Notes: generated by a model from the sequence alone, not told the origin. Positions 5,842-36,248 are shown, numbered from the stretch's first letter. The stretch: 64,000 bases of DNA from Pirellula sp. (GCA_013822735.1 PNKZ01000013.1:80076-144075); one strand, 5' to 3'. Translations and numbers: made by a program.

Positions 5842-8800
5842 CTAAGCTTTGAGTTCCGACGGGACCGCTCCGGTTTGTGATGCGTCTTCAACGCCGACTT
5901 CGGCCGTGCGGCGTTTGCGCCGTCGATATCCGGCGAAGCCGAGGCCGGCGAGTGCAACCATCAACAGGCTGCCGGGTTCGGGGACGGCGGAGTAGTTGAT
6001 ATAGAGAGCGTTGTTGTAGGAGCTGACCCAAAACTGGCCGCCGAGCGCCGAGCCGTACGACGAGCCCGCTCCGGTGCCAAAGATTGCGTCGCCGGTTTGG
6101 TTCGTGAAGACGTTGAAATAGGCCGACAGATCGGTGTCGACGAGCGGATTAATGGCCGCGGATGAGCCGTTGAGTTGAATTTCGTTGGCCGCGAGCCATT
6201 TCCAGGTGTAGGCGTAGGCGCGGCCGCCGGGCTCGTGTTGGCCGGCATTCGGCTCTTCGTCGATGGCGCTGGTAGGATCGAATGAGTTCGTGCCGTAGCC
6301 GGCCGTGCCGTTCCAGGAGTTGAGGTAGAGGTTGATCTTGTCGCCCGGAGAGAGCGCGAGATTCAACGCGCCGGACACCGCGAAGTAATCCCAATTGGTG
6401 CCGGGCGTAATTTCCGTGCCTGTGGGATTTCCGGCGGCGGCTTGGAAGTCGAACACCACGCTTGCTCCGGCGTTCCACGTGCTGCTCGCGATCGGGAGCG
6501 CGCCGACTCCGTTGCCCGCGGCGCCGTTGGTGTTGGAGCCGGCGCTGAGGACGCCGTTATTGTTGACGACGACCGGCGCGTTGATCGGTCCGGTGCCGTT
6601 GAAGGTGCCGACGTTGCCCGGGGTCGCAGCGTTGCCGACGTTCACACCGGAGCTGTTGTTTAGCGCGGTGTTGACGGTGAGCGAACCCTGATAGACGTTT
6701 GTCGCGCCGGAGTAGCTCGGCGTGTTCGTCAGGGTGAGGTTGCCGAGGCCGAGCTTCGTGAGGCTGCTGCCGGCGCTGCCGAACGCCGTGCCGAAGGAGA
6801 CAGATTGTGAATTGGTGTCGATGCGAAATAGCTGATTGGCGGCCGTGCTGAAGCGGGCGGAGTAATCGACGGCGTTGTTGGCCGAGTACTGGAGCGTGCC
6901 CCCTGAGAACGTGATAGAGCCTGCAGTGCCGAGCGCGCCAAGGCTGTCGACTTGGACGATGCCGTCGGCGAGCGCGGTGCCGCCGCTGTAGGTATTGGCG
7001 CCCGAGAGGGTGAGTTTGCCGAGCCCGTTCATGGTGAGCGAGCCGGTGGTGGTGGTGATGGCGCCTGCAATCGTGACGTCGCCCATGCCGGTGACGATGA
7101 GGCTTTGCGCAGCGCCGGCGATGGAGTTTGCAGCGCTGAGCGTGAGCAGGCCGGCGTCGGATTGGATAGTGGCGCCGCCGGTTGTTAAGGTGACGGTGCC
7201 GCCGTAGATGTTGTTGCCGCTCAGGTTGCGCAGTGCGCCGTTGGTGGCGGTGCCGGTGCCGGTAATGCTGAGCGGTTCGGCGCCGACGGTGATGTCGCCT
7301 TGCAGTTCGAGCGACGCGCCGGCTGCGACCGTCGTGCCGTTTGCGGTAGTGCCGAGCGCGGAGTTGTTGCCGATGCCGAGAATGCCGGCGCCGACCGTGG
7401 TCGCTCCGGTGTACGTGTTGGGACCCATGAGAATGAGTCGGCCGAGGCCGTTTTTCGTGAGAGCGTCGGCGCCCGAGCCGGTGCCGTCTTGAATTACGGC
7501 ATTGATCGTCGCATCCGCCGTGGGGGCAACGCTGATGGTGACCGTGCGGGCTTGATTGTTTTCCGCCAGCACGAACGTGTCCGATGCGGAATCGCCGATC
7601 GTCATCGTGCCGACGTTGCTGATGATCAAATTACGACTAGCTCCGGTGCTGCTCCAATTGCCCGTGAACGTGAAGTTGCCCGACCCTTGCAGGGTGCTGA
7701 CGCCGGTGAGAGTCACGGCGCTGGAGATCGTGCGGTTGCCGTCGTAATTGTCGAGAGTTCCGCCGGCGAGACCAAGCGCGGCGGTGCTAAGCGAGGCGTC
7801 GGATCCCACCTTCAGCACGCCTGCGGTAAGTGTGGTCGTGCCGGTATAAGTGTTGGGACCAAGGAGTACCCAGGTACTCGTGCCGGTCTTACTCAGGTTG
7901 AGCGTACTAACAATTTCTTGAATGAAGTTTACGGAGTTGTCGACCCCGGTCGATGTTCCGCCCAGCGTCAGCGTTTTGGTCCCGGCGGTAATGGTGCGAA
8001 TGGTACCGAGGCCGAGTGAGCCGGAACCATTGGCGTTGATGGTGAGGCCGCCGGTGGTCCCTTGCATTTCGACGATGCGGTCCGTCACGCTGCCTAAGCC
8101 GGTGTAGGTGAGCGTCACGGACGTAGTCGTGAGGCCGGTGCGAATGATGCCGCTCTCGACCGTCGTCGGGGCGCCCAGTGCGCTCGCTGCGCCGCCGACA
8201 TTGTCGACGCTCGCGAAGCTCAGCGTCCCGGATTGAAGTTCGACGGGGCCGGAGAACGTATTCGCGTTGGAAAGCGTTAAGACGTTCGTCTGTGTTTTCA
8301 GCAAGCCGCCGCTGCCGGCGAGAACCGCCGAGATGGTCGTGTCGACGGTATTGTTGAAGAAAAACCCGGAGGCGGCCGTGATCGTTCCGGTTCCGCTGAT
8401 AACCGGCCCGGCGCCGCTGGTCGTCATCGTGCCGACGGCGACGTTGTTCGTGCCGATATCGAACGTCGCTCCCGCGCCGATGCTGAGGTTGTTGCCGACG
8501 CCGATCGCGTTGCCGACGCCGAGGGTCAGCGTGCCGCCTGTGATAGACGTTGCGCCGGTGTAGTTGGCCGCCGCATTAAGCGTGAGATTTCCCGCTCCGG
8601 TCTTCGTGAAGCCGCCGCTGCCGGAGCCGACGCTATTGGCCAATACCAGGCTGATGCCGTTGGTGTCGATGGTGCCGCCGCCGCCGAGGAGTGTGATAGC
8701 ACGGAGGGAGATGTCATCGGTCAGCGACGACCCGAGACGAAGCGTTCCTCCGGCGAAGACGAGTGCTCCCGTATTACCGCCGATGTTATCGAGGTCGGCG

Positions 8801-11800
8801 ATTTCCAGAATGCCTTCGTTAATGGTCGTCTTTCTTGCGCCGCCGCCTGCGGTGTTGACGGCCGTGAGAATGAGCGTGCCGCGGCCCGACTTGGTGATGT
8901 CGGCATTGGAAGTGAGGGGCGAGCTAATCGTCGCCGTGAGCGAAGCGCTTCCTGCGGCCGACGACGGGTTCACGACGAACACGACGTACTCGTTGGTCGA
9001 ACCGACGGAGATGCCGTCGTCGAACCCGCCGAGGTTGATGCCGTTTGCCGAAGCCGCCGCGGCGCCCGAATTCAGCGTGAACAGGAACGTGCCGCTGGTG
9101 TTGACGAGCGATTGGCCGGCACCCGTGCCCATGAGGCTTACCGTCGAGGCGGTCGTATTGTTGTTGTGGATGACCAGAGCATTCAGCGTGCGCCCCGCCG
9201 CCGCAAGGTTGTCGGCCGTGAGATTTTCGCGGACGTTGGCACTGTTTCCGCCGGCGCTAAAAGGGGCGTAGTCCGTCGTTAAATCAAGGGCTACGAAACC
9301 TTGAGCCGCAACGTAAGTGATGAGGCTGTTTCCCATGTTCGTATCGGCAAGCGCAGCGGAGATCGATTCACCGATTCCCCACGGCACGATACTGCGCGTG
9401 GTCGTGCCTGCACCTCCGCCGCCGCCGATGAGTGAGCCGATAAACGCCGTTTCGTTGGCGGCTGGGCCGATTTTGAACTGATTGCGATCGCTTGCGGTGC
9501 CTCCCATGTTGCGACCGCGCGCATCGACCGTCGCATTGTTGGCTCGCACGAAATTGTCGGCGATGATATGCGCGATGCCGGTCGACCCGCTTGCCTCTCC
9601 GCTTAAGTAATTGGCGCCCGAGTTGAAATTCAATGCGCCGATCGTTTCATTGGTCGTGGCGTTAACATCGGTACGAATCGACAATCCCCGGACGATCGTT
9701 TGGCCGGAGAACGTGCCGTCGGCGGAGTTGAGCGTGATGGGCGTCGTATCGAGCACGCGCGAGCCGCTGCGGGTGCTCCCGGTGTTGTCGAGTAGGAATG
9801 TGCCTCCCTTATTGATGGTGATGGACGAAGCGGCGGACGCTCCGATTCCGGAGAAGTAGAAAAGGCCGCCGTTGATCGTGATGGTGCCGGTGAATCCGGA
9901 GCTGTTGTTGTTGAGTAGCTCATTTCCCGACCCAAGTTTCACGATATCGCCGCTTCCGACGATAAGCCCGGAGTAGGTCGCCGAGCTGGTCGAGTTTTGA
10001 TTGATGGTAAGCGTGTGCGCGCCGATGTCGACGACGGCGAGTAGATTGAGTCCCGTAGTGGCGCTGCCGCCGGCGAGGCGTCCGATCGTTTCGTCCGCCA
10101 GAAGTTGCAATGTGGAGAAGTGGTCGTTGCCGAGCGTGACGAGCGACGTATCGCCGATGGCGTTGCCCCCCGTAACTTGAACCGTTCCTTCTTGGATTTC
10201 GGTCTCGTCGGTGTAAACGTTGTTGCCGCTCAGCAGCAGCGTGCCGACTCCGGATTTCGTGAGGGAGTGATTGATGCGAATGTCGGCCGAGATCTCGAAG
10301 ACGCTTGCATTGTCCTGAGTGACGATGATTTCCGCGGCGCCCGAGGCCAGCGTGCCGTTGAGAATGCCGGCCGATCCGGTGACGTTGCTCGTGACGAGGA
10401 TTCCTCCCGTGGCGACGTACAATGCTCCGCCGGCCGACATCGCGAGGTCGGACCCCGCGGCGGCGTCGAATCGCAAGCTATTGATTCCGGATCCCGTGAG
10501 CGTTCCGGAGAACCCGGCCGAGCCGTCGGTCACGTGGTCGCCGGATTGCCACGTCGCGACGTCGTTCTTGAGCGTGGAAATCAGGGCCACGATGTTCCCG
10601 CCGGCCGTGTTCGTAGCGTTTGTGGCGAACCAGGTGCCGGTGCCGTCGTCTACGGTTGCAAAACCACTCGTCCCTAAAAGCCCGTTGGTGTTAAGCGTGT
10701 TGGTAATGATGCCGTTCGTGGCGGTCTGCGTTCCGGCGGGGAGAACGAAACGGATGGTGCCGTCTTGCGAACCGTTGGCGCGCGTGACGGCCTTGATGTC
10801 GAGCAGCGCGTCTTGACCGACTCCGGCGTTGACCACGATGCGGTTGGAACCGCCGCTGGAGAGTGTAAGGCTCGCGACCGCTTGCGCCGTGGCCGCGGAA
10901 GCGTTGCCGTTGAGCACAAGCGTGCCTCCTTGCATGTCGAGCCCGGCCACGGAGCTAATCTTGTTGTGGTTGTCGCTCGTGAAATCCAGGATGAGTCGAC
11001 CGGAGTCAATGCGTGTGGCCGCAACGGTTCCGGTGAGGCCGCTGTTGTCGCCGGAAAGCGTTACGTCGTCCAGGCCCTGCTTGAGTAACGAGGCCACGCC
11101 GGCGAGATTCGCCGAGATCGCTCCGCGGTACGTGCGGATGCCGCTACCGTAATCAGTCGCGGTGCTCGTGACGGTAATGGTCCCGGAGCCGATAGCTTGG
11201 CCTTCCAGGCCGTCGGCAATCGCTCCGATGAGCAGGCCGGGCGTGGTGATATTAAAGCTATTTGTGTTGAGCACGCCGGCGGCGCCTACCGTGGCGTCGC
11301 CGAGGTTGATGAAGTCGAGGCCGCCGCTGTTGCCGACGCCGTAAACGTCGTTTGCGTTGAGGTTGATGATCGCGCCCGCACGAGCGTAGAGTCCGGTGCT
11401 TGCTCCGGCCGGATTCTTCGCGGAGAGGACGCCGGTCGAGTTCAGATTTAATACGGTCGGTAAAGCGCCTCCCGTTGCGACGACGTCGTCGTTAACGCTG
11501 AAAACCATGTCTTCTAGATTCAAGGTGCCGCCGTTGAGGAGAAGGTCGTCGGCGATCGTGACGTTACCGTCGCGGATCGTCCAGGTGCCGTTGGTCACGA
11601 CGAGATCTGCCGTGGCTCCTCCCGCAGGCTGTGTAATGCCGCCGGTGATTCGCCCGGCACCAGTGCCGTTGAGCGTCAACGAATTGTCGGCCGCCTGCGT
11701 GACGGCTCCTGCGTATGTAATGACGGCGCCGGCGCTGCCGTTTGCGAACAGCGTGGCGCTGCCGGTGGTGGTGATGGTGCGATCCGTCGATTGGCTGTCT

Positions 11801-14800
11801 GCGCCGACAAAAGTGAGCGTGGCCGCCGCGAGAGTGATGGCCGAACCGCGACCGAGGCTGCTGGCCGGACCGCCGATATTGGAGACGGTGGTAAATTCGA
11901 GTCCCCCTTCGGCGACGGTGATGTCGCCGGTGAATGTGCTCGCGCCGCTGAGTCGAATAGTGCGGCTGGTTACGGCCCAGCCCCCGAGTTCGTCGTTGAT
12001 GGTGAGGTTGCGCGAGCCCCCCGTTTCAGAAATGACGGCGGAAATATCGAGGAATCGGGCGGCGGTGCCTTGGTAGCTGATGCTGGCATTGTTGCCGAGC
12101 ACGATGGAATTGGTGACGTGGAAGACGCTGAAGTTATCCGTAGCTTGGCTGAATCGCAGCGCGTTGTTGGCGTTGGCCGTACTGCCTAGCGTAATGATGC
12201 CGTTGAGGTTGACCGACATGTCGGAAGTGGGCGTGCCGGACGCGTCGGCCGAGAGTTCGAGGATGCCGCCGACGGCGTCGACGGTAATGTTTTGCGCGAG
12301 GTCGAACGACGTACCGCCCGCGGTGAGGAACTGGATTCGTCCGAGCGTCGCCGTGATATTGCCGGTGCCGAGGGCGTTGACGTTCGATGCGGCGACGGTG
12401 CCGCGCAGCAGGTCGAGGCCGCCGGACCAGCCGCTGTTGTCGTTGCTGAGCGTGAGCGAGCCGGTGAGTTGGTTGCCGCCCGACAGGGTGTTGACGCTAT
12501 CGACGGTGAGCTTGCCGGTGCCGCTCAAGACGCCGGTAAGATTGATGCTCCTTGCCGCCGTGCTGACGACGGCGGAGTTGTTATTTCGCATGTTGACCGT
12601 CGACGGCGCGGTGATGTTGACCGTGCCGGAATAGGTTTGCGTGGCGGAGCCTGCCGAGAGCGCGCCGCCGCCGAGAGTCAGCGGATTGGCGACGTTGCCG
12701 GAGGTGGCGTTGTTGTAGTAAAAGCCTCCGCCGTTGACGACGACGCGCGCCAGGTTGTCGGCCGCCGTCGTGCCGAGCGCCCCGACATTGCGCAACTCCA
12801 GCGCGCCGCCGATAATTGTGAAATCGGCGGTAAGGCCCGGGTTGAAGAGCAAGGGGTCCGCCACAGCGCTCAGAACGACGGTGCCTGCGCCGGAAACAGT
12901 GACGTCTTGTTCGCCTTGCAACGCGCCGGAGAACGTGAGCACGGACGCGGAATCGGCAACGCTCCAGGTTTGATTCGCTCCCAGGCTAAAGGGCGACGAA
13001 ATGGTGACGGCCGCGGGGCCGCCCGTCGTGATTTTGACGCCGTCCGTGGGAGTTTGCGGACTCACTTGGAGGCGGAAAGCGGGATTAACGCCGGCCGCGA
13101 TGGTGACCGCCGTGGGAGTGTTTGCGGGAGTCGTGGCGGCTTCAAACGTGAGCGAGTTGATCGTGAAGTTCTGTTCGAGCGTGGTGCTGACGGCCGCGTT
13201 CGTGGGTGCATTCCACTGGAAGACCACGTCGCTGCCGCTGCCGGGAAGGCTGCTTGAGGGATTTGTTCCGGCCTTGTCGAGCGACCAATTGTTCGCGGCG
13301 CCGTTCCACGCGGTGTTGGTGAGGCCGCGCCAATAGAGGCTGCCGGTGAGCAATCCGCCGACTTGCAACTGCACAAGATTGTCGGTCGTAATCCAGGCGT
13401 AGCTCGCGAAACCGCCGGGGGTGAGCCCTTGAAGGAGGTTGCTGAAGCCGTAGGCGCCGAGTCCCCCGTTCACGACGTTGAGCAATGTGTAGGTCTGGTT
13501 CGGACGCATGCCGGCATCCGTGAGGTTAAACGTGATGGTGCCTCCGAGGTTCAACGTGCCGCCGTTGAGAAGGCGGATTAGGTCGGTGTTGAGGTTGTCG
13601 CCTGCCGTGGCCAAATCGCCGACGTTGAGATTAAGCGTTGCCGTGCCGGTGCCGGTGTTGCCCAAGCTCAGCGAGGTGAGATTCAAGAGCTGCGTACCGC
13701 TCAAATCGAGGTCGAGCGTGAGCGATGATCCGGCCCCCACTTCAAGACTCGTGACGCCCGTCGAAGCGCTGAAGCCGTTATTGAACTCAAGCGTCGAGCC
13801 TCCGGTGACCGAAACGGCCGTGGTGGCGGACACATCACCGGCGAAGACCAAGCTGCCTCCGGTGACGTTCGTCGCTCCGCGATGGGCGTACGTGCCGCCG
13901 GTAAACAGGGCCGACGCGGTGCCGATTTTCGTGAGCGATAAGGCCCCGGTGCCCGTATTGATGACGCTTCCCGCAAAGGATACGGCCTGATCTCCCTTGC
14001 CGAAGCTGAGCGTGCCGGCCGTGGCAGCGGAGTTGTTGATGAACGACGAACCGGCGCTGGATACCGCGAGGCCGCGAATGGTGTCGGAGAAGCCGTTGAC
14101 GTCCAGCGTCGAACTGAGCGTCGCGGCCGGGTTGATGACGAGGTTCGTTTGCAGACTGAAATTCAGCACATTGTCGGCGCCGATTTTGAACGTACCGTTG
14201 GCAATGGTGATCACGCCGTTGTTAAACGTCGACGCAGTGCCTCCCAGCGTGAACGAACCCGAGCCGTTTTTGGTGAGGTTGATATTGAAGCCGGTCGTCG
14301 TGGTGATGTTGCCCGTTACGATGGTGTCGCCGGAGCCGTCGATGCTCCAAGTTCGGGCGGCCGTCAGGGATTCGGCCGTGACGTTGCCAAAGGTGACGGA
14401 CTTGCCCGGCGCGATGTTGTTGTTCAGGCCGACATTGTTTGCCGCCGCGAGGAGTTGAAGAGTGCTGGTAAACGTTAGGCTGTACTCGCCCATGAAGCCC
14501 GCAGTGGCGTTATTCACTATGCGTACGGGATTGGCCACGGTGCGATCGGCGCCGAAGGCGAAGGTGGTGCCGTTGCTCAGATCGAGATTGCCGCCGACGC
14601 CGACGGCCGTATCGTTGCCGATTCCGAGTGCGCCGCCGCTGACGGTCGTGGTGCCGGAATAATCGTTTGCGCCGGTGAGAATCCAAGTTGCCGAACTGTC
14701 GATCGTGATGCCTAGCGCACCGCCGTTGTCGGACAAGGTGCTCGTGATCATGTTGCCGCCGGCGTTGGTGCCGCGGAGGAAGAGGGTCTTCGCGCCGGCG

Positions 14801-19605: not shown

Positions 19606-19728
19606 TGCAGACGTTCCGATCCTGAGAGGCTTCGAGTGAAGTGGGCGGTAGTCGAGCGACGAAAATGGATCGCGATCCGGAAGCGGAGAGCTGCCGTCGC
19701 TTGCAACTGCGAGGTCGTCTACTTGCCG

Positions 19729-19756
19729 ACTATAAGTGCATTAACCGAGCTCACAA
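19729..19756 (-). promoter_or_regulatory. Putative sigma70-type promoter of giant A
   Basis: Minus strand TTGTGA-GCTCGGTTAATGCACT(16)-TATAGT; homologous to the element upstream of giant B. Confidence 0.6.
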
Positions 19757-19990
19757 CGAATTGGATCGCTGGATAAAAAAGTAAAAAACGCCGCGAATAA
19801 CGCTGCGAAAATTGATCGCGCGCGCAACGCCGTTCGTTCGCTCCGACACGGCGACGCAGCCCCGCGGAGGCACCTCGGTAGGTGCGACAAGTTCGCCGGT
19901 TGCAACTGCTCGATGAAGCGGTCGGTCCGTACACACTGTCGCGGTGACCGGCGATTACCTAACACCTTCGAGGGTGCGTCATCACAAGAC

Positions 19991-20010
19991 CGCGACATTT
20001 TCGCGCGGTG
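19991..20010. promoter_or_regulatory. Conserved 20-bp upstream motif, copy 1 (candidate operator/activator site)
   Basis: CGCGACATTTTCGCGCGGTG, 18/20 identical to 36229-36248; contains a CGCGA-N5-TCGCG dyad. Confidence 0.5.
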
Positions 20011-20293
20011 AAAACGGGGGAATGTCGTCGAACCCCTAAGAGGCCGGCAGAGGCACGTCGGCGACATGTTGTCGCGTCCGCAAGACGGTTGGCGTCAAGT
20101 TGTCACCATGGCAAATCTCGTCAACCCAAATATTCTTCGCAGGACAAAGATCAACGTCGCTGCCGCAACGAATTCTTATTACTTGTTTGCATCCACGTTT
20201 GCCGGCACGCGCGTTGCAAAAGAAAGGGTTCAACGCGGCAATATTTTTGTGGGCAGATTTGGCAACTCCCTCAACAGCAGCATCTCTAACACC

Positions 20294-27500: not shown

Positions 27501-30500
27501 ATCAGGGTGATCGTCGGAACGGTTCCGGGAGTATAGGTGCCGGGATTCGTAATCACGATGCCGACGACCGCTCCGCCGCTAATGAGCGCATAGCCGGAGG
27601 CCGGCGTGCCGCCGGCAACGACGCCTGCGGTGCTAAACACGACTGCCGGAGCGCCCACATAGCCGCTGCCGCCGGTTACGGTGAGATTACTTTGCGTGAC
27701 GCCCGCGCCCGACGCGCCGACGAAGATGTTGGAAAGGGAACTGTTGGCGCCGTTGGAATCGAAGACGAGTCCGCCGGCGAAGTCTTGCGAATCGTCTCCC
27801 GTGGCCGACGTATTATCGACGGCTCCGAAGAGCGTGGCAGTATAGGTAATCCCTGCGGAGGACGCCGGAATCCAATTGGAAACGCCCACGCTCGTTTGTA
27901 GCGTACCGCCGACAAAATTGAGGTAGGCATTGTTGCCGCCGGCCGCGTTCACGCTCTGCGTGATGGCGGTTCCTACGCTCAAGGTACCGTCGGCCAGATT
28001 GATGAAGCCGGAGTTCCCGCTGCCGTTGGTGGTGCTATTACCGAAGCGGATACTGGTGCCGCCGACGGTGACGCTACCTCCCGCGACATTCAAAACACCG
28101 AAGGTGCCGCCGGCGGTCGTCGAGTTCATGAAGATGGCGAACGGCTGCGTGGCGCCGGTGTGATCAATCATGCCGTTGCCGGCTACGGTGATCTGCCCCA
28201 TGCTGTAGCCGTTGATAAACCATTCGCCGCCGGTGTGGTCGAGGAATCCGTCGCCGCCGACGTATACGACGCCCACCGAGGCGGTGGCCGTATCTAACGC
28301 GCTGCCGAGATTCGCGCTGCCGTTGACGTCAAAACGGTTAAGTACCTTGTAGACGCCCCCGGTGAGATTGAAGTAACCGTAGGAACCCGCGGCGCGCGCA
28401 ACATATTGAGAGTCGCCGGTGCCCGGGCTCAGCGTCACGGTGCCGGCCGTTTGGTTGTAGATCGCCACCGATCCGAGAATGTTGCCGCCGGTGGTGGCGA
28501 ACGCGGTGACGTTTCCGGAAACGTTGACGATCGTGTTGCCCGCCGTGCTCCCGTAACTGAGCGTCGACGCCGTCGTGTTGCCGGTCCACGTGCCGGTGAT
28601 GTTCAAAGTACCGGCGCTCAGGGTCGTGTTGCCGGTGTGCGAGTAGATGCCGCTTAAGGTGAACGTGCCGGAGCCGGTTTTGGCGATTCCCAAGGTTCCG
28701 GCTCCCGTATTCTGCGACGTCCCGCTGAAAATAGTGCTGGAGTTGTCGCCGCCGACGGTCAGCGTTCGATTCGCGGCACCGCCGTTTTCTACGAGGCCCG
28801 AGCCGGCAAGTGAGCCGATCGTGGTATTAAAGTTGTTCAGTCGCAACGTGGCTGCGGCGGCGAGGATGTGGGCCGACGTTTGGTTGAGGCCGTTGGTCGC
28901 CGCCGCCTGGAGAATGCCTGCGTTGATCGTCGTCGTGCCGACATAGGAGTTTGTGCCGCTGAGGGTCAGAATTCCGTCGCCGGATTTCGTGAGGTTGCCC
29001 GTGCCGGTTATGCCTCCGCTCGAAACGAGCGCCGTCAGCGCGTCGGCGACGGTCCATGTCTGACTCGCGCCCAGAATGATTGGCGCCGACAGTGTGATTG
29101 TCGGGGGGGCGCCGGTGGCCACATCGATTCCCGCCGTGGGCAATGTCGGCGTAATGGTCAACGTTCCGCCCGTCCCCGGCGCAATGGCGATCGACAATAG
29201 AGGTCCGGAGCCGACGGCGTTGTTGAACGCCAAGCTACCGATACTGAAGGCTCCGTCGAGCGTAGTGCTGAGCGTCGTAGCCGTCTGCGTGGTTGTGCTG
29301 AAGATTACGTCCGTCGCAATGCCGGGCGTACCGTTCGCATTCGTATTACCCGCGAGGTCCGTCGTCCAGTTCGTCGTGATACCGGTGTTTCCCCTCCAGC
29401 TGGAATTGATTCCGCCTTTCCAGTAGAAGTCGCCGGTGGAGGCCGCCGCGGCAAGTTGCACCAGCGTGTCGCTCGTGTTCAAGCCGAGCGTAACGCCCAA
29501 TAAAGTCCCGCCGAGGGATCCGAGCGAATAGGTTGCGCCGTTTAATCCGCCCGCGGCGGTGAGCAGATCGTAGTTGCCGGTACCGAAGCCGCTGAGTCCG
29601 GTGAGGTTGAAAACAATACTATTGGCGGTCGTCGCGGAAGCCGAGGTCGTGAAACGATCGTAAGCCGAGGTCGAGCCTAGTTCGAACGCGAGCGTCGTCG
29701 TGCCGGTACCTGCGCCAAGATTCAAAGCGCCGGAGCCGAGATCGACCGCCCAGCCGGCCGTGTTGACCAAATTGAGCGTGGCGCCCGCCGCGACCGTAAT
29801 GGCGTTGGTCGTGAGCGCGGCGCCCGCACCACCGGTGATGTTGAGCGTGCCGGCGGTAACCGTCGTGGCCCCGACATAGCCGATGCTCGAACCGCCGAGG
29901 GTGAGCGCCGACGTCGGGCTCATCTGCACGATATTTGTTACGTTGGAGCCGACGTTGGCGCTAATGGTCGTCGTGCCCGTGGCGATGCCGCGATTTGTGA
30001 TTGATCCGGAATGGTTGACCGCCAAGGTGGTCAGCGCTATGGCGCCCGTGGTCCCGTTGTTGCCGATCGAAAGATCGCCCGAGCCGGTGATGCCGCCGGA
30101 TACGGTGAATGTGCCGGTCGTTCCTTCCTTGGTAAGCAGCAAGTTATTGTTGAGCGTGATGCCGCCGCTGAGGTTGGGACTTCCCGTCGTCGTACCGCCG
30201 AAGATGGTCAGCAAGCCGCTGGTGCCGGCCGCAACCACGATCGGGTTCGCGTAGACGCCGCTATTGAAGAACGTCAGCGCGGCATTAGCGCTTCCCGTTG
30301 TGTCGCCCAACGTGATGACGTTGGTGCTCGCGCCGAACGTGTTGACATTGTTGCCGCCGACGACCGTTCCCGATTTGATCACGAGGCCGCCGGTAAAGGT
30401 GCTGGCGACGGCGCCCAAAGTCAGAACGCCGGAGCCGCGTTTGACGATGCCGACGTTGTTTTCGTCGGTCCCCGCACCGCCGATGATGCCGGAGAAGGTC

Positions 30501-33500
30501 GTGTTGGTGTTCTGATTGACGGTGAGCAGCGAAACTACGGGATTGCCGCCTACGAGCCCGCCCGCGCCCGACAACTCGCTAATCGATTGGTTGGATGCGC
30601 CGGCGACATTGCCGAGTTGCAATGCGCCGCCGGATACGACGACGCTCGTCGTGGTGAGGATGCGATCGTCGGCGCCGCCGGCCAGGATGAGTCGCCCCGC
30701 GGCGATGGTCGTCGCTCCGAGATAGGTCGTCGTCGCGCCGAGCGTCAGGTTGCCGGCGCCGGCTTTCGTCATCCCTCCCGTACCGCCGTTGCCGACGGCG
30801 TTGGCAAACGTGATATCGATGCTGTTCGTATCGAACGTTCCTCCGCCGATTCCCATCGACAATACTTTCGACGATGGATCGAAAACGCCGGCAAACTTCA
30901 ACGTGCCGCCGAAGAAGTTGAGAGCTCCCCCGCCCAGTTTTGCTAAGGCGTCCGTCTGCACGTTTCCTTGATTGAGGTAGATATCCGTAAACGCGTTGCT
31001 TACGTTGTCGAGCACGATCGTGCCGGCGCCCGACTTGACCAGCGGCACCGCCGACGTCAGCGGCGTCGTCAACGTCAGTACGCCGGTCGCTTCGGTGACG
31101 TACACGGTGTAGTCGCGACCGCCGCCCGTCGTCAGGGCGCTAATGCCCGCGATGCTGTGGGCTCCGGTGTTGGCGGCCAAAATGGCGCCTGAGAACACCT
31201 GCATGCTGCTCGCCGAGCCGGTCAAAGCGACTCCGGTCGCGGAATCGAGCACCAGGGAATTGATCGTGGTCGGAGTGTTGGTGATCGCCGCCGTGGCGGT
31301 GAAGCGAATGTTGTCGTTGAGCGATCCGGTGATCCCGATGTTGTCGTTGATGTATTCGTTCGTCAGATCCAGCGGCTTGATGCCGTTGGTGCCGTCTCCG
31401 GCGCGCACGAAACTGTTGCCCAGACCGGTATCGGTGACGGCGCCGACCATGTACGGGTAGACCGGAAAGGCGGTGCCCGACGTTCCATTGCCGACCGGCG
31501 CCAGAGTGAGCGTAGGGGCCGTCGTGAAGATGATCCGACCTCGATTGCCGGACGACGCGCCCAAATTGACGCCGCGGACCAGCACCGTGGCATGGCGGTC
31601 GACCGAGGCCAGCGTCCCGAACGTCAAAGTTCCTGCAACCGTGCCGGCGGCCGTCGCCCGGACGACGTTGTGCCCGGCGCCCAACGTCAACGAAGCGAGT
31701 GTTTCCGCGCCGGAGGTCGTTCCCGCGCTACGGGAATATGCGAATCCGATGCCGGTACCGGCCGTGTTGTAGAGAGTGAGCGTGGCATTGTCGTTGATCT
31801 TGTTGTTCGACGCCGTATTCTGATCGTTCAAGATCGACATGCCGCTCGCCGGGCCGTTGAGCACGATGGCGGCGATCCCCGTCAGCTGCGCGAAGTTCCC
31901 GCTCAGCGTCACTTGCCCCTGGTTCACCTGAAAGGTTCCCAGGAAATTGGACGAGTTGCTCTGGAAGGTGAATGTGCTTGCGCCCGATTTCACCAAAGTA
32001 CCCGCATTGGTGCTGGTGACGATGCCGGAAAAGGTGTCGTTGCCGGTTTGATTAAATGTGAGTCGGTTGCCGTTGAGACGGATTTCATTCACGATTCCCG
32101 TTTGGTTCAAGCCGCCGGTTTCGATGAATCCGATCGTCTCGTCGCTTAGCAGCTCAAAAACGGAACCTTGGCTCGCACCGAAGACGAGGGACGATGCGTC
32201 GCCGAAGGCGTTGCCGCCGGACACTTGCAACGTGCCGCTCATAATACTGGTGACGCCGGTATAGTTATTGTTCGATCCGCTGAGCCGCAGCGTGCCGTTG
32301 CCGACCTTGGAAATGGTCGTGGCTCCGGAAAAAGCGGAAGCAACTTCCAACACTTGAGCGGGAGAGTCGACGGTAAAAATCAACTCGTTGCCGGTGTTCG
32401 ACGACAACCGTCCGCCGGTTATGAGCGACAAGCCCGCCGTGACGTTGCTCGTTTGCAGAATGCCGCCGCTATCGATGCGCAATAGTCCGCCGGAACTAAT
32501 GGTTACGGTCGAAGGCCCCGCGGCGTTGAAGCGGAGGCTGGCAATCGTCGTTTCTAAATCCAGCGTGCCGGTGAATCCGGACGAATCCGAGATATTTTGC
32601 CCTCCGCTCCACAACGTTACGTTGTCTTGAAGGGTCGATGTCACGCCGACGATGTTTCCGCCGAGGTTCGTCGCGAAATTAGTGGCTCCCAGCTCGTCCG
32701 TCACGGTGGCAAACGGGCCGATCAAACCGTTGGCGTCATTAGCCTGAGTCGTAAGGATACCGTTCGCGGCGTTCTGCGTTCCGCTCGGAAGATTGAAACG
32801 AATTGCTCCGGAGCTCGCGGCCCGACTGATCGCTCCGACGCTCATCGCGATCTGTTGCGAATTCCGCGGCGAGAGCGTGATCGTGCTGAATCCGGCCCCG
32901 GTGAGCGTCAGGCTGGAGGCGTTTTGCGTTGTGGCGGCCGAAGCGTTGCCGAGCAACACCAACGTTCCGCCTCCCATCGTCAGAGCACCCGAACTGAGCT
33001 TCGCATTATTGTCCGTGGCAAAGTCGAGCCAAGTGATGCCGGCGTTGAACGTATTGGCCCCCGTCGTCGTGTTTGTTCCGGTGATGCGCAGATTGCCGCC
33101 GCCCGTCTTGGTGATGCCGCCGCCCGTACCGCTGATGGGACCGAGAATCGTCAGTTCCGCTTCGCTCGCTTCGACGGCCGTGCTGTCGGCAACGCTCACC
33201 GTGGTGACGGCGTTGATCACCAGCCCGCCTGCCGAAGCATCGAGCAGCGCCGCTTGAGGGTTGCCCGAATTGCCGACGGAGAGTGCTCCCGAGAGCGTTA
33301 GGATCCCGGTACCGGTGGTCAACGTTCCTTGGCTCGTGGCGCCGGTCGACGTCCCGTAGAACGTGAGAGCGGCGGCAGTAAAATTGAAGTTGTTCAAGTC
33401 CAACAGGGCAGGCCCGGTGCCGTTGCCGACGAACACCGTGCCGGTGCTGGCCAGCGCGTTGGCATTGCCGAAGCGCAGCGTCCCGCTCGTGACGACCTTA

Positions 33501-35956
33501 TTCCCCGTCCAAGGATTCGGTGCGCTGAGCGTCAAGACGAGCGTCCCCGTACCGGTCTTGCTCATGGCGTGCCCCGCCGCGCCGGTAAACGTGCCGGTGA
33601 ACGTCGTCGAAGTATTGTCGCCGCCGAAGGTCACCGTCCGCGCGGTGCCCGTCCCGCCGGCGATTGTTCCCGAGCCGGAAATAGAGCCGACCGTCTCGTT
33701 GCCGCTGGCGAAATCCCAGGTAGCCCCCGAAGCGATGACCAGCGGCGACACATCGGAAAGCATATCCGCCGCGCCATTCTTCAACGTTCCTTCGTTGAGG
33801 AACGTCGTCCCCAAATAACCGGCCGTGGTTCCATTGAGGATAAGAACGCCCGGCCCCAGCTTGATGAGTCCGCCGCCGCCCGTAACCGCCCCTTGAAGAG
33901 TGAGGGTTGTGAGGGAGTTCGTCACGTCGATGGTCGCATTACCGCCGGGCAACGTGTAGGTATGGCCGCCGGCGCCCGTGTCGGCAATCGTTCCCGTAGC
34001 GCCCGTGTACTGCAGCGTCGCGCCCTGGCCGATCGTGACGACCGTTGCCGCGCCGGCGCCGAGGCTTCCCGCGCCGCCTGATGTAACGTTGCTGAAGCTG
34101 AGAATGCCGCCGCTGACGAACACGCCCCCGGTGGCGCTGTTGACCCCGGTAAGCGTGAGTTTGCCCGGGCCCGTCTTGGTTAGAATTTGGTTCCCGACGC
34201 CGGAGCCGATATTTGCGCTAAGGGTGAGGTTGCCGGTACCGTAGTGGTGAATGAGGATTTCGGAGTTGCTGCCGAGCGAGCTATTGAGCGCGCCGCCCGA
34301 ACCGCCGATGGTGTAATCGTTCGCTCCGGTGAACAGGAGGCCCCCCGCGGTGAGCGTGAGATTGTTCAAACCAAGGTCCAACGACTGGCCCGCGGCGTCG
34401 GCGTTGATCTTCAAGGTGTTCGTCGTCCAAGGGCTGGCGAGCGCCGTGATTTGATTGACGATCGCGGAATCAATGCGCGAGTTATTGGTATCCGTTCCGC
34501 CCGGAGTGAGGCCCGCCACGTCGAAATACGAACCGGAAGCCAGGGCAATCGTGTTCGTCGTCGCGCCGGTGTTAATTGCCCAGTTGTAATTGGTGCCGTC
34601 GGGCGTAAAGAGCAGGCGGGCATTAACCGTGGTAAACGCCGTACCCAAGCGCACATTGGTGTTCGCGGGCGCGTTAATCAAGAGCGTGCCGCCGGCCGCC
34701 GTCGCGGTGACGGCGAGGGTCGTAAGTTGCGTGCCGATGGCACTACCGTTGGCGTCCATGATGATCGCGCCGCCCGTCGCGCCGATGGTCAAGGCACCGA
34801 CCGTTTGCGCAATAGCGGCGCCGCTGTTGCGGCCGCGCACTTCGAGGTTGCCGCCGGCGATGGTGATCGGAGTACCCGCCAACATGCTCGTCAAAGAGCC
34901 CGCGGAGAAATCGAGGCGCAATGCGCCTCCGTTGATGACCGTGGCGCCGGTATAGGTGCTGGCCGCCGTCGGCGCGAGCGTCAGCGTTCCGGCGCCGGTC
35001 TTCGTGATGGCCATTCGAGAAACGGTCGTCGGAAGGAACCGTCCGGAAAACGTCGTACTGGTATCATCACGTCCGATCGTGAAGATGCGCGTGGCCGAGG
35101 CCGTGCTGGTCGTAACCGTGCCGCCGCCGGAAAGCGAGCCGATGGTCGTTGCCGTATTCAGGTAATCGAGCGTCGCACCTGCGGCGACGGTGACCGCGGA
35201 ACGTGCGGGCAGGGCCGCGGCATTGCTGATCTGCAACGTTCCATTGCTGACGAGCGTCGCGCCCGAATAGGTGTTTGCTCCCGAGAGAAGAAACGTCCCG
35301 CTACCTGTCTTGGTCAGTCCTCCGCCGGTGCCGATCACGCCGGATATCGTCGTTACGCCGGGGCCGGTGCCGGTCAGGGTGATGTCGGAGTTGATCGAAC
35401 GTAAGCCGCCGGAAATCGTCAGCGTGCCGCTGGAGTTATTGGTGATCGTCAGCGCGTCGTAGAACTGGATGTTCGTGGAGATCGTATCGGCGCCTCCCGT
35501 AAGCTTGTTGAGCAACACCGGCCCGCTCACGGCGTCGAGATGGAGATAACCGCCGGCCAGCGCAAACGTATCGGTGCCCGCGGCATCGCCGATGTTGAGC
35601 GTCCCCAAGACAATCGGTTGATCGAGGTTGATCGTTTGATTGCCGAGGATATCGATATTCAAATTCGCCGTATCGCCGACCGCGTCCGGAAATCCGGCGG
35701 GGGACCAGTTTGCGTTCGTAGGCCACGAATACGTACCTGCTGCGGTTTGATTCCACGTATAGGTCGCGGCGCGCAGGGGAAGACCTGCGACAGAAGTCGC
35801 GCAAACAGCGGCGAAGACGGCGACACGATGGAACTGCCGTTGCCAAGCGCGGCGCCGCATTGAGCGATGGCGCAGCCGGACGGCGCACGTTGCCGCACTC
35901 CATACAGGCGCAATGCGATGGAGACTTGGGCAGACATGGTCAGATAGATACTTCAT
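21503..35956 (-). CDS. Giant (4817 aa) beta-helix surface protein with autotransporter-associated beta-strand repeats and PEP-CTERM anchor (giant B)
   Basis: Same repeat type as giant A. Signal peptide ends PLRA-ATYTWN. C-terminus is YSAVPEPGSLL + TM + RRRKRK. Confidence 0.92.
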   Translation of the reverse strand: MKYLSDHVCPSLHRIAPVWSAATCAVRLRHRSMRRRAWQRQFHRVAVFAAVCATSVAGLPLRAATYTWNQTAAGTYSWPTNANWSPAGFPDAVGDTANLNIDILGNQTINLDQPIVLGTLNIGDAAGTDTFALAGGYLHLDAVSGPVLLNKLTGGADTISTNIQFYDALTITNNSSGTLTISGGLRSINSDITLTGTGPGVTTISGVIGTGGGLTKTGSGTFLLSGANTYSGATLVSNGTLQISNAAALPARSAVTVAAGATLDYLNTATTIGSLSGGGTVTTSTASATRIFTIGRDDTSTTFSGRFLPTTVSRMAITKTGAGTLTLAPTAASTYTGATVINGGALRLDFSAGSLTSMLAGTPITIAGGNLEVRGRNSGAAIAQTVGALTIGATGGAIIMDANGSAIGTQLTTLAVTATAAGGTLLINAPANTNVRLGTAFTTVNARLLFTPDGTNYNWAINTGATTNTIALASGSYFDVAGLTPGGTDTNNSRIDSAIVNQITALASPWTTNTLKINADAAGQSLDLGLNNLTLTAGGLLFTGANDYTIGGSGGALNSSLGSNSEILIHHYGTGNLTLSANIGSGVGNQILTKTGPGKLTLTGVNSATGGVFVSGGILSFSNVTSGGAGSLGAGAATVVTIGQGATLQYTGATGTIADTGAGGHTYTLPGGNATIDVTNSLTTLTLQGAVTGGGGLIKLGPGVLILNGTTAGYLGTTFLNEGTLKNGAADMLSDVSPLVIASGATWDFASGNETVGSISGSGTIAGGTGTARTVTFGGDNTSTTFTGTFTGAAGHAMSKTGTGTLVLTLSAPNPWTGNKVVTSGTLRFGNANALASTGTVFVGNGTGPALLDLNNFNFTAAALTFYGTSTGATSQGTLTTGTGILTLSGALSVGNSGNPQAALLDASAGGLVINAVTTVSVADSTAVEASEAELTILGPISGTGGGITKTGGGNLRITGTNTTTGANTFNAGITWLDFATDNNAKLSSGALTMGGGTLVLLGNASAATTQNASSLTLTGAGFSTITLSPRNSQQIAMSVGAISRAASSGAIRFNLPSGTQNAANGILTTQANDANGLIGPFATVTDELGATNFATNLGGNIVGVTSTLQDNVTLWSGGQNISDSSGFTGTLDLETTIASLRFNAAGPSTVTISSGGLLRIDSGGILQTSNVTAGLSLITGGRLSSNTGNELIFTVDSPAQVLEVASAFSGATTISKVGNGTLRLSGSNNNYTGVTSIMSGTLQVSGGNAFGDASSLVFGASQGSVFELLSDETIGFIETGGLNQTGIVNEIRLNGNRLTFNQTGNDTFSGIVTSTNAGTLVKSGASTFTFQSNSSNFLGTFQVNQGQVTLSGNFAQLTGIAAIVLNGPASGMSILNDQNTASNNKINDNATLTLYNTAGTGIGFAYSRSAGTTSGAETLASLTLGAGHNVVRATAAGTVAGTLTFGTLASVDRHATVLVRGVNLGASSGNRGRIIFTTAPTLTLAPVGNGTSGTAFPVYPYMVGAVTDTGLGNSFVRAGDGTNGIKPLDLTNEYINDNIGITGSLNDNIRFTATAAITNTPTTINSLVLDSATGVALTGSASSMQVFSGAILAANTGAHSIAGISALTTGGGRDYTVYVTEATGVLTLTTPLTSAVPLVKSGAGTIVLDNVSNAFTDIYLNQGNVQTDALAKLGGGALNFFGGTLKFAGVFDPSSKVLSMGIGGGTFDTNSIDITFANAVGNGGTGGMTKAGAGNLTLGATTTYLGATTIAAGRLILAGGADDRILTTTSVVVSGGALQLGNVAGASNQSISELSGAGGLVGGNPVVSLLTVNQNTNTTFSGIIGGAGTDENNVGIVKRGSGVLTLGAVASTFTGGLVIKSGTVVGGNNVNTFGASTNVITLGDTTGSANAALTFFNSGVYANPIVVAAGTSGLLTIFGGTTTGSPNLSGGITLNNNLLLTKEGTTGTFTVSGGITGSGDLSIGNNGTTGAIALTTLAVNHSGSITNRGIATGTTTISANVGSNVTNIVQMSPTSALTLGGSSIGYVGATTVTAGTLNITGGAGAALTTNAITVAAGATLNLVNTAGWAVDLGSGALNLGAGTGTTTLAFELGSTSAYDRFTTSASATTANSIVFNLTGLSGFGTGNYDLLTAAGGLNGATYSLGSLGGTLLGVTLGLNTSDTLVQLAAAASTGDFYWKGGINSSWRGNTGITTNWTTDLAGNTNANGTPGIATDVIFSTTTQTATTLSTTLDGAFSIGSLAFNNAVGSGPLLSIAIAPGTGGTLTITPTLPTAGIDVATGAPPTITLSAPIILGASQTWTVADALTALVSSGGITGTGNLTKSGDGILTLSGTNSYVGTTTINAGILQAAATNGLNQTSAHILAAAATLRLNNFNTTIGSLAGSGLVENGGAANRTLTVGGDNSSTIFSGTSQNTGAGTLGIAKTGSGTFTLSGIYSHTGNTTLSAGTLNITGTWTGNTTASTLSYGSTAGNTIVNVSGNVTAFATTGGNILGSVAIYNQTAGTVTLSPGTGDSQYVARAAGSYGYFNLTGGVYKVLNRFDVNGSANLGSALDTATASVGVVYVGGDGFLDHTGGEWFINGYSMGQITVAGNGMIDHTGATQPFAIFMNSTTAGGTFGVLNVAGGSVTVGGTSIRFGNSTTNGSGNSGFINLADGTLSVGTAITQSVNAAGGNNAYLNFVGGTLQTSVGVSNWIPASSAGITYTATLFGAVDNTSATGDDSQDFAGGLVFDSNGANSSLSNIFVGASGAGVTQSNLTVTGGSGYVGAPAVVFSTAGVVAGGTPASGYALISGGAVVGIVITNPGTYTPGTVPTITLMGGGGTGAAVTAGALNTANVSGGLTKINGGTLTLSGANTYTGGTTITGGILALGAAGVLADTGNVTINGGTFDVATFAETVGTVSLQSGSINGTTGILTASADYDLRSGTVAAILAGGVGVIKSTVGTVTLGGLNTFSGPVNVNSGVLAFSTSGNLGNASATNTVAVNGGTLRYTASTTLDLGANRVLTVAAAGATLDVTSSTGVLQFSAGVDAASSGSLIKLGPGTVILANTTNLNGGAVTVSDGALRAGFGVGGISALTVGASGVMNFGNGAVQALGGLSGLTLANGSRLAFELDALLSDSLAVTNPAVVSGTVILDFINFGAGVSATTYNLISAPSGLLGANFVLGAGINGWNLVINRTDSLVSLTASPFLPIYWRGGQNASWNTLGAGTANWTSDSNGTVDSAHKPLPSETVVFSALGTPFTSTTVITTTLDAAFTIDSLVFDSVPAGVTAVTINPGTGGTLELAPVSSSSGIEIRNNAGTITIAAPLTASSPQTWQVSAVGASLVVSGNTTFTSSVNKTGAGMLTLSGANSGAGGITLTDGTLNINTATALGTGTLVIGSGTTINNSSGAAVTLSTNNVQTWNGNFTFTGTQSLNLGAGGVTLTNNTVVTGAAGTLTVGGAIGQSGGNRGLGKAGAGTLVLNGANTYDGLTDLSGGILTLNGDNTDATGGVMMAAATTLNINHAGALGTGLFTINGGIINNLSGAAIVNANNNSQVWNGSFVFTGGSSYNLGTGSVLLGANVTVTTTANTLTVGGVINDGINSFNLNKDGAGTLVLSGLSNNAADNYSGTTTLVGGTTTIATNTSLSGGLTFGTSAGTIVSTLDLSSANLTIGGAMLVQTNSSSQNTITLGAGRTLTNNANVTIGSAGTGTNARLTVAGATSAWNVSGTNLTFRVGGSSTATGTVILTMTNLGSFTTDLGTAGAFRVGSADGGSATDTNTALLAVNSTIQAGTLDVGGTTTRAGTATLTMGTGQTNLFANTFNIGSFLASGTTALRSSGAVNFANPTQGSVTVRGENGTAAATLNMINSTTNTGTSMTSTLSLAGHSADLLLGTLTMASRNPTANTTTQTNVSTLTFDQGTFAATTAVLSNRAGSSFTTGGTTANLTLGGTTAGTTVTLGTVTMSQNSASTADSSGNAAATIDIGGIGTTSITTLNMGSVTLSGVNATGGSSATVNIAGSTTTIGAINMAVNSATAAVTTVTTAASTLNISAGTVNVTGNISMGNTTVNALNVITNTINITGGSLTVGGNIAYTNGLGVENVTLALNGGLLDMTSGNIGAAGAFITFNAQSGTLRNLAELNAGGATVNATLDKTTTGTLLLDTLNSYTGFTTVTAGVLQIRHGSALGGTARGTTVAGTGAALEISNNITTLAEALTLNGTGISDDGALRSAAGNNTYAGNITLASAARINSNGAGDTLTLDVASGNAVTGADVDLTFGGIGNIIVADAIALGAGGLTKDGVGILSLNVANNYAGLTTVSAGVLAVAHGGALGGTTNGTSVAAGGTLSLSGNITVAGELLSLSAGAGGNAALNNQSGNNTWTGNLTVDTGTDGANRAVLNSDAGTLTISGDVNLAAGAQDFVLRGDGNGEISGQITGGQRLFKSSVGTGTWILSGDNSVTFTGRTSVGNGTLQIASEANLGASPGAFAANQLTLGGGATKGTLKTTGSTSLSANRGVTLSAGGGAFDVAAATKLTVNSGVTGAGALFKESTGILVLNGTNNYAGSTTVNAGVLTVNGTLAGSDVLVAAGATLNGGAPAATPGAAINAAAAITIAAGGSPAAGGQLSAGANDAGNNGNGVGRLDVGTGGIVLGNNSSLVFDFNQAVGVEGTNWDYLNVAGTVTLGTNLTLYIDSWTLNNAAYGKNEGGNAPGPNDFNPEQPFADAYQWKWMTTNGILGQNEIDNGNYTYLANFNVVDSRAGTGVFSNTAYGPGTIGGQFWVSAVGNSLYVNYSAVPEPGSLLLISLAGIGFAGYRRRKRKLDADVESSQSESIASK

Positions 35957-36144
35957 CTAGTTCCGTACTCCATGAGCACTCACCAACATCAAAGGCATTC
36001 GCACGCCGGGCGGGATCGATCTTCGCGACCTTCGTTTCGAACTTGCTAAGAAGTCAGATTCGACTCCCAAAGAGGTCATCTGGGCACATCGTCCAGATCG
36101 CGATTTTTTTAGTTTTTTACTTACGAAACAGGCAACTATCGCCC

Positions 36145-36172
36145 ACTATAAGCCCCTTGAACGAGCGGTCAA
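36145..36172 (-). promoter_or_regulatory. Putative sigma70-type promoter of giant B
   Basis: Minus strand TTGACC-GCTCGTTCAAGGGGCT(16)-TATAGT, near-consensus; homologous to 19729-19756. Confidence 0.65.
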
Positions 36173-36228
36173 AACAATTGCAAGAACGCTAAGCCGGTTC
36201 CTTAAAATCGCCCATACAATGCGAATTA

Positions 36229-36248
36229 CGCGACATTTTGACGCGGTG
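36229..36248. promoter_or_regulatory. Conserved 20-bp upstream motif, copy 2
   Basis: CGCGACATTTTGACGCGGTG, in the same orientation relative to the giant gene as copy 1. Confidence 0.5.

Follow-up and report, generated by a model that had tools for sequence, protein, structure and literature searches.

A conserved cis-regulatory code that may tie a predicted sigma-54-driven gene to neighbouring giant PEP-CTERM proteins in Pirellula

Genes longer than 5 kb were present in 29 of 29 planctomycetal genomes and most are thought to encode surface proteins, according to the sections drawn on here of Kohn et al. (2016; PMC5177795). How such genes might be controlled is the question raised by a locus of Pirellula sp. 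(GCA_013822735.1), in which two giant genes (giant 1 and giant 2) flank a small gene, the central gene. The locus lies in a stretch of 64,000 nucleotides (PNKZ01000013.1:80076-144075), referred to here as the window, which corresponds to C13:80076-144075 of a genome (G000) of 6.88 Mb in 38 contigs that is 99% complete. Coordinates count from the first base of the window; contigs of the same genome are written C1, C29 and so on, and related genomes G002, G004, G005 and G014.

A first-pass annotation of the window had described the locus as a self-contained, co-regulated cassette for very long surface filaments or adhesins, controlled by the central gene. The follow-up analysis presented here leads us to a different reading, which we think somewhat better than evenly balanced: the central gene and the giants are probably tied by a conserved cis-regulatory code, and a dimer of the central protein would act at the neighbouring giants in a cascade fed by sigma-54.

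Regulatory elements at the central gene and the giants

An open reading frame (ORF) scan found a single plus-strand ORF between the giants (20066-21280), confirming the proposed arrangement of two co-oriented giant ORFs around one gene on the opposite strand. We kept the start of the central gene at 20294, where it had first been placed, because its homologues begin with MIR or MIK at the position of M77 of the longer ORF; the predicted sigma-54 promoter, lying downstream of two earlier ATGs, agrees with this start. The same promoter motif is found at C1 and C3 and at G002:C17, G004:C315 and G005:C168. With at most one mismatch, it stands 60-110 nt before the ATG at all three own-genome loci of the clade described below (127 such sites exist genome-wide, on both strands), and all three (window, C1 and C3) carry palindromes at -130 and -161 with the same spacing. 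The genome encodes one rpoN and 20 sigma-54 activators.

The giants had been credited with a common upstream 20-mer, and this held: the two copies are 18/20 identical (blastn E 0.014) and, allowing up to two substitutions, are the only two matches on both strands of the genome. The core of the 20-mer is a 15-bp imperfect palindrome, GCGACA-N3-TGTCGC, which recurs before the central gene (Table 1). With at most two mismatches, this palindrome was found within 800 nt upstream of 7/8 PEP-CTERM giants of at least 4500 amino acids versus 0/6 smaller ones; given a background of 9.5% per 800-nt stretch, the binomial P is 5e-7 (5/6 and P 4e-5 without the window giants), although these P values are generous and the statistics partly circular, as the motif took its final form with the loci already in view. 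Of the 57 genomic sites with at most one mismatch, seven are located in the upstream stretches, 6.4 kb in total, of the eight largest giants. Relative to the predicted start, palindromes occupy positions of about -98 to -120 at giant 2, G005:C6, G002:C17 and G004:C315. The palindrome is also present upstream of the first two giants (12557 and 8901 amino acids) of a tandem array on C11.

Owing to spacing differences, MAFFT global alignment of the giant upstream regions was uninformative and local blastn was used instead. The two giant promoter regions proved 31/41 identical (blastn E 0.005), with TTGnnn-16-TATAGT at both, and an independent promoter scanner picked the same two sites, one sigma-70-like site per giant upstream region (19756-19729 and 36172-36145), in line with the homologous promoters initially described. 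Upstream of the giant 1 promoter lies a T-tract, TTTTTTACTTTTTTA, which with up to two mismatches has three genomic occurrences, one at 19774-19788, an inverted one at 36105-36119 and one at the C1 giant, each of them at a giant promoter near a central-type gene. Across five related genomes there were four matches with at most one mismatch: two perfect copies (G002 and G005) stand at giant promoters with the same spacing, and two one-mismatch copies in G004 stand at no giant. Giant 1, C1, G002:C17 and G005:C6 share a fixed layout of T-tract, 16-17 nt, -35, 16 nt and TATAGT(C/G)G. The cis-elements reported for the giants are real and conserved in other genomes too, the promoter arrangement recurring in three related ones.

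At giant 2, the 8-pair hairpin and inverted T-tract at 36078-36119 resemble a plus-strand intrinsic terminator. As a general explanation of the T-tract, a terminator tail was rejected: a good hairpin accompanies the inverted copy at giant 2 only, and by eye the dyads at giant 1, C1, G002 and G005 span 3-4 bp. A promoter element with fixed spacing is the more likely interpretation.

Table 1: Coordinates of genes and predicted regulatory elements in the window.
Feature	Position	Strand	Details
Giant 1	5842-19605	-	4587 amino acids (ORF scan)
Conserved -10 block CTTATAGTCGGC	19725-19736	-	Also in own C1, G002:C17 and G005:C6
Giant 1 sigma-70-like promoter	19729-19756	-	-35 TTGTGA (19751-19756), 16-nt spacer, -10 TATAGT (19729-19734)
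T-tract TTTTTTACTTTTTTA	19774-19788	-	17 nt upstream of giant 1 -35, centre near -60
20-mer copy 1 CACCGCGCGAAAATGTCGCG	19991-20010	-	Holds degenerate palindrome 19992-20006 (2 mismatches)
Perfect palindrome GCGACA-ACA-TGTCGC	20061-20075		At -161 from the central gene's predicted sigma-54 start site
Second palindrome GTGACAACTTGACGC	20092-20106		2 mismatches; 31 nt from the perfect copy; -130 from the predicted sigma-54 start site
Sigma-54-type promoter CGGCACGCGCGTTGCA (GG-N10-GC)	20203-20218	+	About 75 nt upstream of the central ATG
Central gene	20294-21280	+	328 amino acids; predicted N-terminal helix, two helix-hairpin-helix domains, helical dimer interface, C-terminal sigma-region-4-like helix-turn-helix
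Giant 2	21503-35956	-	4817 amino acids (ORF scan), architecture as giant 1
Hairpin (36078-36098), then inverted T-tract TTTTTTAGTTTTTTA (36105-36119)	36078-36119	+	Downstream of giant 2 -10, in predicted 5' leader
Giant 2 sigma-70-like promoter	36145-36172	-	TTGACC, 16-nt spacer, TATAGT
20-mer copy 2 CACCGCGTCAAAATGTCGCG	36229-36248	-	Palindrome 36230-36244 (1 mismatch), centre about 99 nt upstream of giant 2 predicted start

The central protein and its giant-linked relatives

Homologues of the central protein are present in 30 of 41 related genomes and 23 of 32 genera, mostly in single copy. The genome studied here has four paralogues, two in tandem on C1 and two on C3; the paralogue at C1:317241 is 54% identical to the central protein and divergent from a C1 giant of 7325 amino acids, with the second family gene in tandem. 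Of 37 related loci, 36 gave a tblastn match and five (L020, L021, L022, L035 and L047) had a giant-like neighbour, six of the 37 being on contigs shorter than 8 kb, where the neighbourhood cannot be judged. When flanks were extended, the neighbours in G002 and G004 turned out to be giants of 7000 to more than 9400 amino acids, the fully covered ones ending in ...YINYSAVPEP...; a scan of species-representative genomes gave two loci (L080 and L081), each with a giant ORF and palindromes upstream.

A 40-row tree placed the window protein in a clade of 11 rows with 99% support, of which eight are giant-adjacent: the window gene, the tandem pair of own C1, three genes spread over two G002 loci and a tandem pair in G004. 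Its two subclades correspond to the first and the second gene of the tandem pair. Two copies from G014, likewise amid giants, fall outside the clade, and the remaining 27 rows all lack an adjacent giant. The giant-adjacency label changes three times on the tree, against a mean of 9.1 when labels were shuffled, and none of 500 shuffles went as low. An order-wide search matched 5/301 genomes at E ≤ 1e-25, adding only G132 and G164, in which no ORF of at least 330 amino acids with GTSNA above 0.4 was found within 20 kb of the homologues. Only a narrow clade is linked to giants: close homologues are linked and distant ones are not. The expectation that homologues of the central gene would sit beside giants thus stood for that clade (8/11 rows) and failed for the wider, mostly single-copy family.

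Several further loci deserve mention. On G014:C3 (L035 and L047), in a second genus, diverged family members lie between co-oriented giants with CGACA-N3-TGTCG palindromes nearby; genes and giants of G014 look frameshifted, possibly through assembly errors. An orphan member of the second type (C3:431757-432700, L015 and L079; G005:C168, L044) has the sigma-54 motif and two palindromes and no giant nearby, its neighbours being a GDSL lipase, an EF-hand protein and a sulfatase. The best-scoring homologues at G132:C1 and G164:C8 (L071-L074, from another taxonomic family of the order) stand, by eye, beside apparent polysaccharide-synthesis genes rather than giants. Finally, five single-copy "housekeeping" members from the same taxonomic family (L014, L023, L025, L026 and L028) carry TGGCAC-N5-TTGCC 118-123 nt before the ATG, with the palindrome in just one of them; the whole gene family may be sigma-54-dependent in that lineage.

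A word-index protein search returned only three proteins, so the extent of the family was taken from an exhaustive search with a profile of 33 members, which retrieved 655 cluster representatives (E ≤ 0.001), 358 of them with E ≤ 1e-30. Neither the central protein nor the family passed any Pfam or NCBIfam model. Its AlphaFold2 (AF2) model is all-helical, with a predicted local distance difference test (pLDDT) score of 89.2. The helix-hairpin-helix model HHH_5 (PF14520) matched 8/33 family members at E ≤ 0.01 and 18/33 at E ≤ 10 (best 3e-5). The best profile matches in the PDB were to SigA region 4 (E 0.085 and 0.69), spanning the helix-turn-helix (...TRARVYQL...) and, after it, the RWP motif. 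Residues 31-93 of the central model resemble the alphaCTD structure 1z3e_B (Z 5.7, root-mean-square deviation 2.4, 61/67 residues, rank 26) and a second alphaCTD structure, 8w9z_A (Z 5.3), in a list dominated by generic helical matches with Z < 7, where values below 8 are common by chance. A neighbour cluster in the Atlas (score 0.83, to be read as a lead only) has RNA_pol_A_CTD in 97% and Sigma70_r4 in 77% of its members. These domain signals are weak but consistent in direction, and the central protein is likely to be a DNA-binding protein from an unnamed planctomycetal family.

Prediction of a homodimer gave a score of 0.77 versus 0.01 for the best control. That mark was attained by 20/30 proteins whose solved structure pairs two copies of one chain, compared with 1/23 solved as single chains. 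Three runs had at least 76% of contacts in common, with a partner pLDDT of at least 79, and the predicted interface is symmetric (residues 182-222 and 282-289). The models support a symmetric homodimer, which would suit a palindromic site. From the first description of the central gene, a likely DNA-binding product was retained, and its closest relatives lie beside giants.

Separately from the central family, strong alphaCTDs other than that of RpoA are encoded at C29:40072-40515 and C2:462995-463180, with counterparts in 14 related genomes. They take two forms, a tandem-pair protein (ORFs of about 450-520 amino acids) and a small stand-alone protein (about 90-190 amino acids), with 2-5 matches per genome.

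The giant proteins and their sorting

In Pfam searches, giant 1 showed 13 PATR stretches (E 1.1e-42) and giant 2 showed 15 (E 7.9e-58), and both ended in a PEP-CTERM match (PF07589) that barely exceeds the cut-off of 20.7 bits (21.2 and 21.3 bits, respectively), as expected from their first description as PATR-repeat proteins with PEP-CTERM tails. At E ≤ 0.001 the scan returned PATR and PEP-CTERM alone and no other family, and the giants therefore have no autotransporter beta-barrel. Their C-termini read VPEPGSLL..., followed by a hydrophobic helix and a basic RRRKR cluster (RRRKRR in giant 1; tails ...GYRRRKR), and giant 1 also has a conserved C-terminal domain ahead of the tail. By eye, the N-termini are basic (arginine-rich in giant 1) and continue into a hydrophobic signal-like stretch up to ...LSAAT or ...LRAAT. 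A single-sequence AF2 model of giant 2 residues 61-500 (pLDDT 53.4) is all-beta with a short-strand periodicity, and Foldseek returned a weak list made up almost wholly of right-handed beta-helix proteins, antigen 43 among them, of which the best (E 1.5) is not significant; a beta-helix fold is plausible on this modelling.

The giants had been called paralogous. They do belong to the same family, but they are not a recent tandem pair, because their alignment (37% identity) is confined to 733 C-terminal columns and each has a closer paralogue on another contig: for giant 1, a C20 giant (41.6% over 2620 columns) and also the C1:294497 giant; for giant 2, a C12 protein (30% over 1882 columns).

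The genome contains 14 PEP-CTERM matches, every one in an open frame of at least 1174 amino acids, so that, judged by sequence, the window giants belong to a family of 14 very large surface proteins with PATR repeats and PEP-CTERM tails. It also contains a single exosortase match (PF09721, C11:13070-13825, E 8e-36 to 2e-35), within an ORF of 587 amino acids (C11:12923-14686) whose C-terminal domain scores 119.8 bits with the XrtU model, for which the cut-off is 40. The gene lies in a polysaccharide-synthesis locus, surrounded by glycosyltransferases, a Wzz/tyrosine-kinase-type protein and two tetratricopeptide-repeat (TPR) proteins, and directly downstream stand tandem PEP-CTERM giants of 12557, 8901 and 7841 amino acids (contig region C11:1-108903). 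With a PF07589 match in both giants and an exosortase encoded in the same genome, the view that the tails are exosortase sorting signals was upheld. The signals of the window giants are handled by this lone XrtU-type exosortase, which seems, from the sequences, to be dedicated to very large proteins in its own genome.

Other window genes, among them those for a LeuA-type synthase, a DUF420 protein and an MMPL-type transporter, are unrelated to the locus. The roughly 2.4 kb upstream of giant 2 (35957-38400) includes the lowest G+C content of the window (0.564 for 36001-38000) and holds only short ORFs without convincing family matches; it could be a non-coding control region of unusual length or a set of degraded genes. 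A remnant of a central-type gene in this region was considered and discarded, as the ORFs are short and unconvincing and an own-genome search at E ≤ 1 found none there.

Mechanism, competing readings and known systems

In the cascade that we favour, the central gene would be turned on by a signal relayed by an NtrC-type activator and sigma-54, its dimeric product would act at the sigma-70-type promoters of the adjoining giants via the palindrome, the T-tract or both, and the giants, with the exosortase as their anchoring enzyme, would form long fibres or adhesins on the cell surface. We read the central protein as a lineage-specific transcription factor within this cascade. The inverted T-tract in the giant 2 leader would allow it opposite effects on the two giants.

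Besides the partial circularity of the palindrome statistics, several observations weigh against this cascade. The palindrome is not over-represented genome-wide, with 5 perfect copies and 57 with at most one mismatch compared with means of 1.7 and 44 (maxima 10 and 144) for 25 composition-matched control palindromes. The palindrome nearest to giant 1 lies at about -277, and five palindrome-bearing giants have no adjoining central-type gene. Two of the 11 clade rows are not giant-adjacent and the context of one more is unknown, while the linked loci are limited to three species of one genus plus G014, kin that are not independent. The domain assignments of the central protein fall under curated thresholds: HHH_5 scores 18.4 bits on the window protein against a gathering score of 27, Sigma70_r4 (PF04545) and RNA_pol_A_CTD (PF03118) each match 2/33 family members in Pfam (best E 0.079 and 0.064, respectively), and Foldseek with the whole central model returned nothing at E ≤ 0.001. 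A comparison by hhalign with 15 genuine alphaCTDs of the same order gave a probability of 3.5%, over a 25-column hairpin motif. The label "alphaCTD-like" given to the protein at the outset therefore survives as a description of a helix-hairpin-helix domain of weakly alphaCTD-like shape and not as membership of that family.

Which protein would occupy the palindrome is a separate matter. We regard binding by the central-type protein as an evenly poised proposition and binding by a sigma-54 activator as a somewhat weaker one. The palindrome is found at regulator genes and giants alike, the usual signature of an autoregulated factor, and the promoters that it faces at giant 2, G002, G004 and G005 lack a sigma-54 motif, both of which speak for the central protein. 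Against it, the -130/-161 geometry and 31-nt spacing would fit the site of a sigma-54 activator.

That geometry is also the starting point of the strongest competing explanation, a pure sigma-54 regulon in which one NtrC-type activator, working through the palindromes, drives the central-type genes and some giants directly, while the central protein, perhaps a nucleoid or accessory factor, is merely co-regulated as a passenger and does not control the giants. Sigma-54 motifs are accompanied by paired palindromes at -130/-161 in the case of three regulator loci and at -108/-142 in that of giant C1:278846, which has such a motif of its own, and the alignment of C13 with C1 shows no other conserved block upstream of the sigma-54 motif. 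The genome has 20 activators and one rpoN, and at 5/25 loci outside the clade, those of the "housekeeping" members, the ATG is preceded at about 120 nt by a sigma-54 motif. Proteobacterial PEP-CTERM genes are likewise preceded by an activator site and a sigma-54 motif, in the account given in the part of Haft et al. (2006; PMC1569441) used here. However, C1:278846 is the only one of eight own giants scanned in which the motif is well placed relative to palindromes. At up to three mismatches, no sigma-54 motif was found upstream of either window giant and no workable one on the giant strand at giant 1, giant 2 or the C1:294497 and G002:C17 giants; giant 2 lacks one on both strands within 1 kb, and the palindromes at -98 to -120 face sigma-70-type promoters. 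The nearby activator C1:323453 falls under every NCBIfam cut-off, including that for PrsR (TIGR02915, 395.7 against 502.6, in a scan of this one of the 20 activators), and the TPR protein falls under that for PrsT (TIGR02917, 54.1 against 312.2). C1:323453 was also rejected as a conserved partner, having no counterpart in the window or in the flanks of L020-L022, L035, L047, L044 and L077. A pure sigma-54 regulon is possible, in our judgement, but on the unlikely side.

A bolder form of the favoured cascade would make the central protein a new promoter-specific factor with two alphaCTD-like helix-hairpin-helix modules and a sigma-region-4-like module, whose dimer would read the -60 T-tract (perhaps also the palindrome), activate giant 1 and block giant 2, so that a sigma-54-triggered pulse would switch alternative giant fibres. 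On the sequence features described, we consider this improbable.

Slightly less probable again is the original proposal, in which the cassette is self-contained and the central gene alone chooses between two alternative giant adhesins. The T-tract does lie upstream of the promoter at giant 1 and inverted within the leader at giant 2, and one factor could activate the one and block the other. However, the locus is not self-contained, because the sole exosortase is on C11; the palindrome is also present at five other giants, on other contigs, the central gene has four paralogues in the genome, and C1 carries a second module of giant and central-type genes. Nor do flanking inverted repeats point to an invertible switch: the search for one at the giant 2 promoter gave 11 short, weak inverted pairs and the idea was dropped. 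The locus is one branch of a wider control network for giant proteins, not a stand-alone unit.

Finally, the modest pairwise similarity of the upstream regions (E 0.005 and 0.014) might suggest that the shared motifs are functionless leftovers of duplication, but we hold this to be very improbable, as the giant proteins are only 37% identical, each with a closer paralogue elsewhere, and the T-tract, spacing and -10 block are near-identical in giant 1, C1, G002:C17 and G005:C6 despite diverged flanking DNA.

NtrC-type activators bind paired dyads that are spaced by about 30 nt and lie 110-160 nt before a GG-N10-GC promoter, and in class I activation and at UP elements an A/T tract is centred near -60, before a -35/-10 promoter. 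The window differs from these textbook layouts in bringing predicted forms of both into one divergent control region. We know of no described site that matches the half-site of the palindrome. The giants are comparable to autotransporter passenger domains such as those of antigen 43 and IgA1 protease in their PATR repeats and all-beta model (with a fold match that is not significant, best E 1.5); they differ in being roughly 4 to 10 times the typical passenger size and in having a PEP-CTERM anchor at the C-terminus and, in the Pfam scan at E ≤ 0.001, no beta-barrel translocator.

The closest known system is that of PEP-CTERM and the exosortase EpsH. As far as the sections consulted of Haft et al. 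(2006; PMC1569441) go, it shares with the present one the PEP motif, helix and basic cluster, an exosortase in a polysaccharide locus with TPR proteins, single PEP-CTERM genes behind long intergenic regions with a common DNA motif, and the involvement of sigma-54. Those sections describe proteobacterial PEP-CTERM genes with long upstream regions, a common motif, sigma-54 and PrsK/PrsR/PrsT, present the motif as confined to Proteobacteria and leave further regulators to await discovery (PMC1569441). In contrast, the Pirellula genome has an XrtU exosortase, substrates that are all at least 1174 amino acids long, a different 15-bp palindrome, sigma-70-type promoters at the window giants, a linked helix-hairpin-helix/helix-turn-helix family and, among the proteins scanned, no PrsR or PrsT over the cut-off. 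The regulatory logic is thus similar to that of proteobacterial PEP-CTERM control, with different parts: exosortase, palindrome, target promoters and factor family. For the planctomycetal giant genes of Kohn et al. (2016; PMC5177795), the sections drawn on give no sorting signal, regulator or promoter motif. In the literature outside subscription journals, a search turned up no work dealing with XrtU, with PATR and PEP-CTERM together or with a planctomycetal helix-hairpin-helix/region-4 factor, and nothing on these cis-elements or the central protein family.

PEP-CTERM/exosortase sorting is widespread in environmental bacteria, and in the same sections its regulation is described for Proteobacteria only, through PrsK/PrsR and sigma-54 (Haft et al., 2006; PMC1569441). 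Giant genes are a hallmark of the phylum, in which the window giants are as such nothing unusual, going by the sections of Kohn et al. drawn on here (2016; PMC5177795). What this locus offers is a concrete candidate code for their control, made up of a 15-bp palindrome, a genome-unique T-tract promoter module and a predicted sigma-54-driven gene from a family with 655 representatives and no Pfam model.

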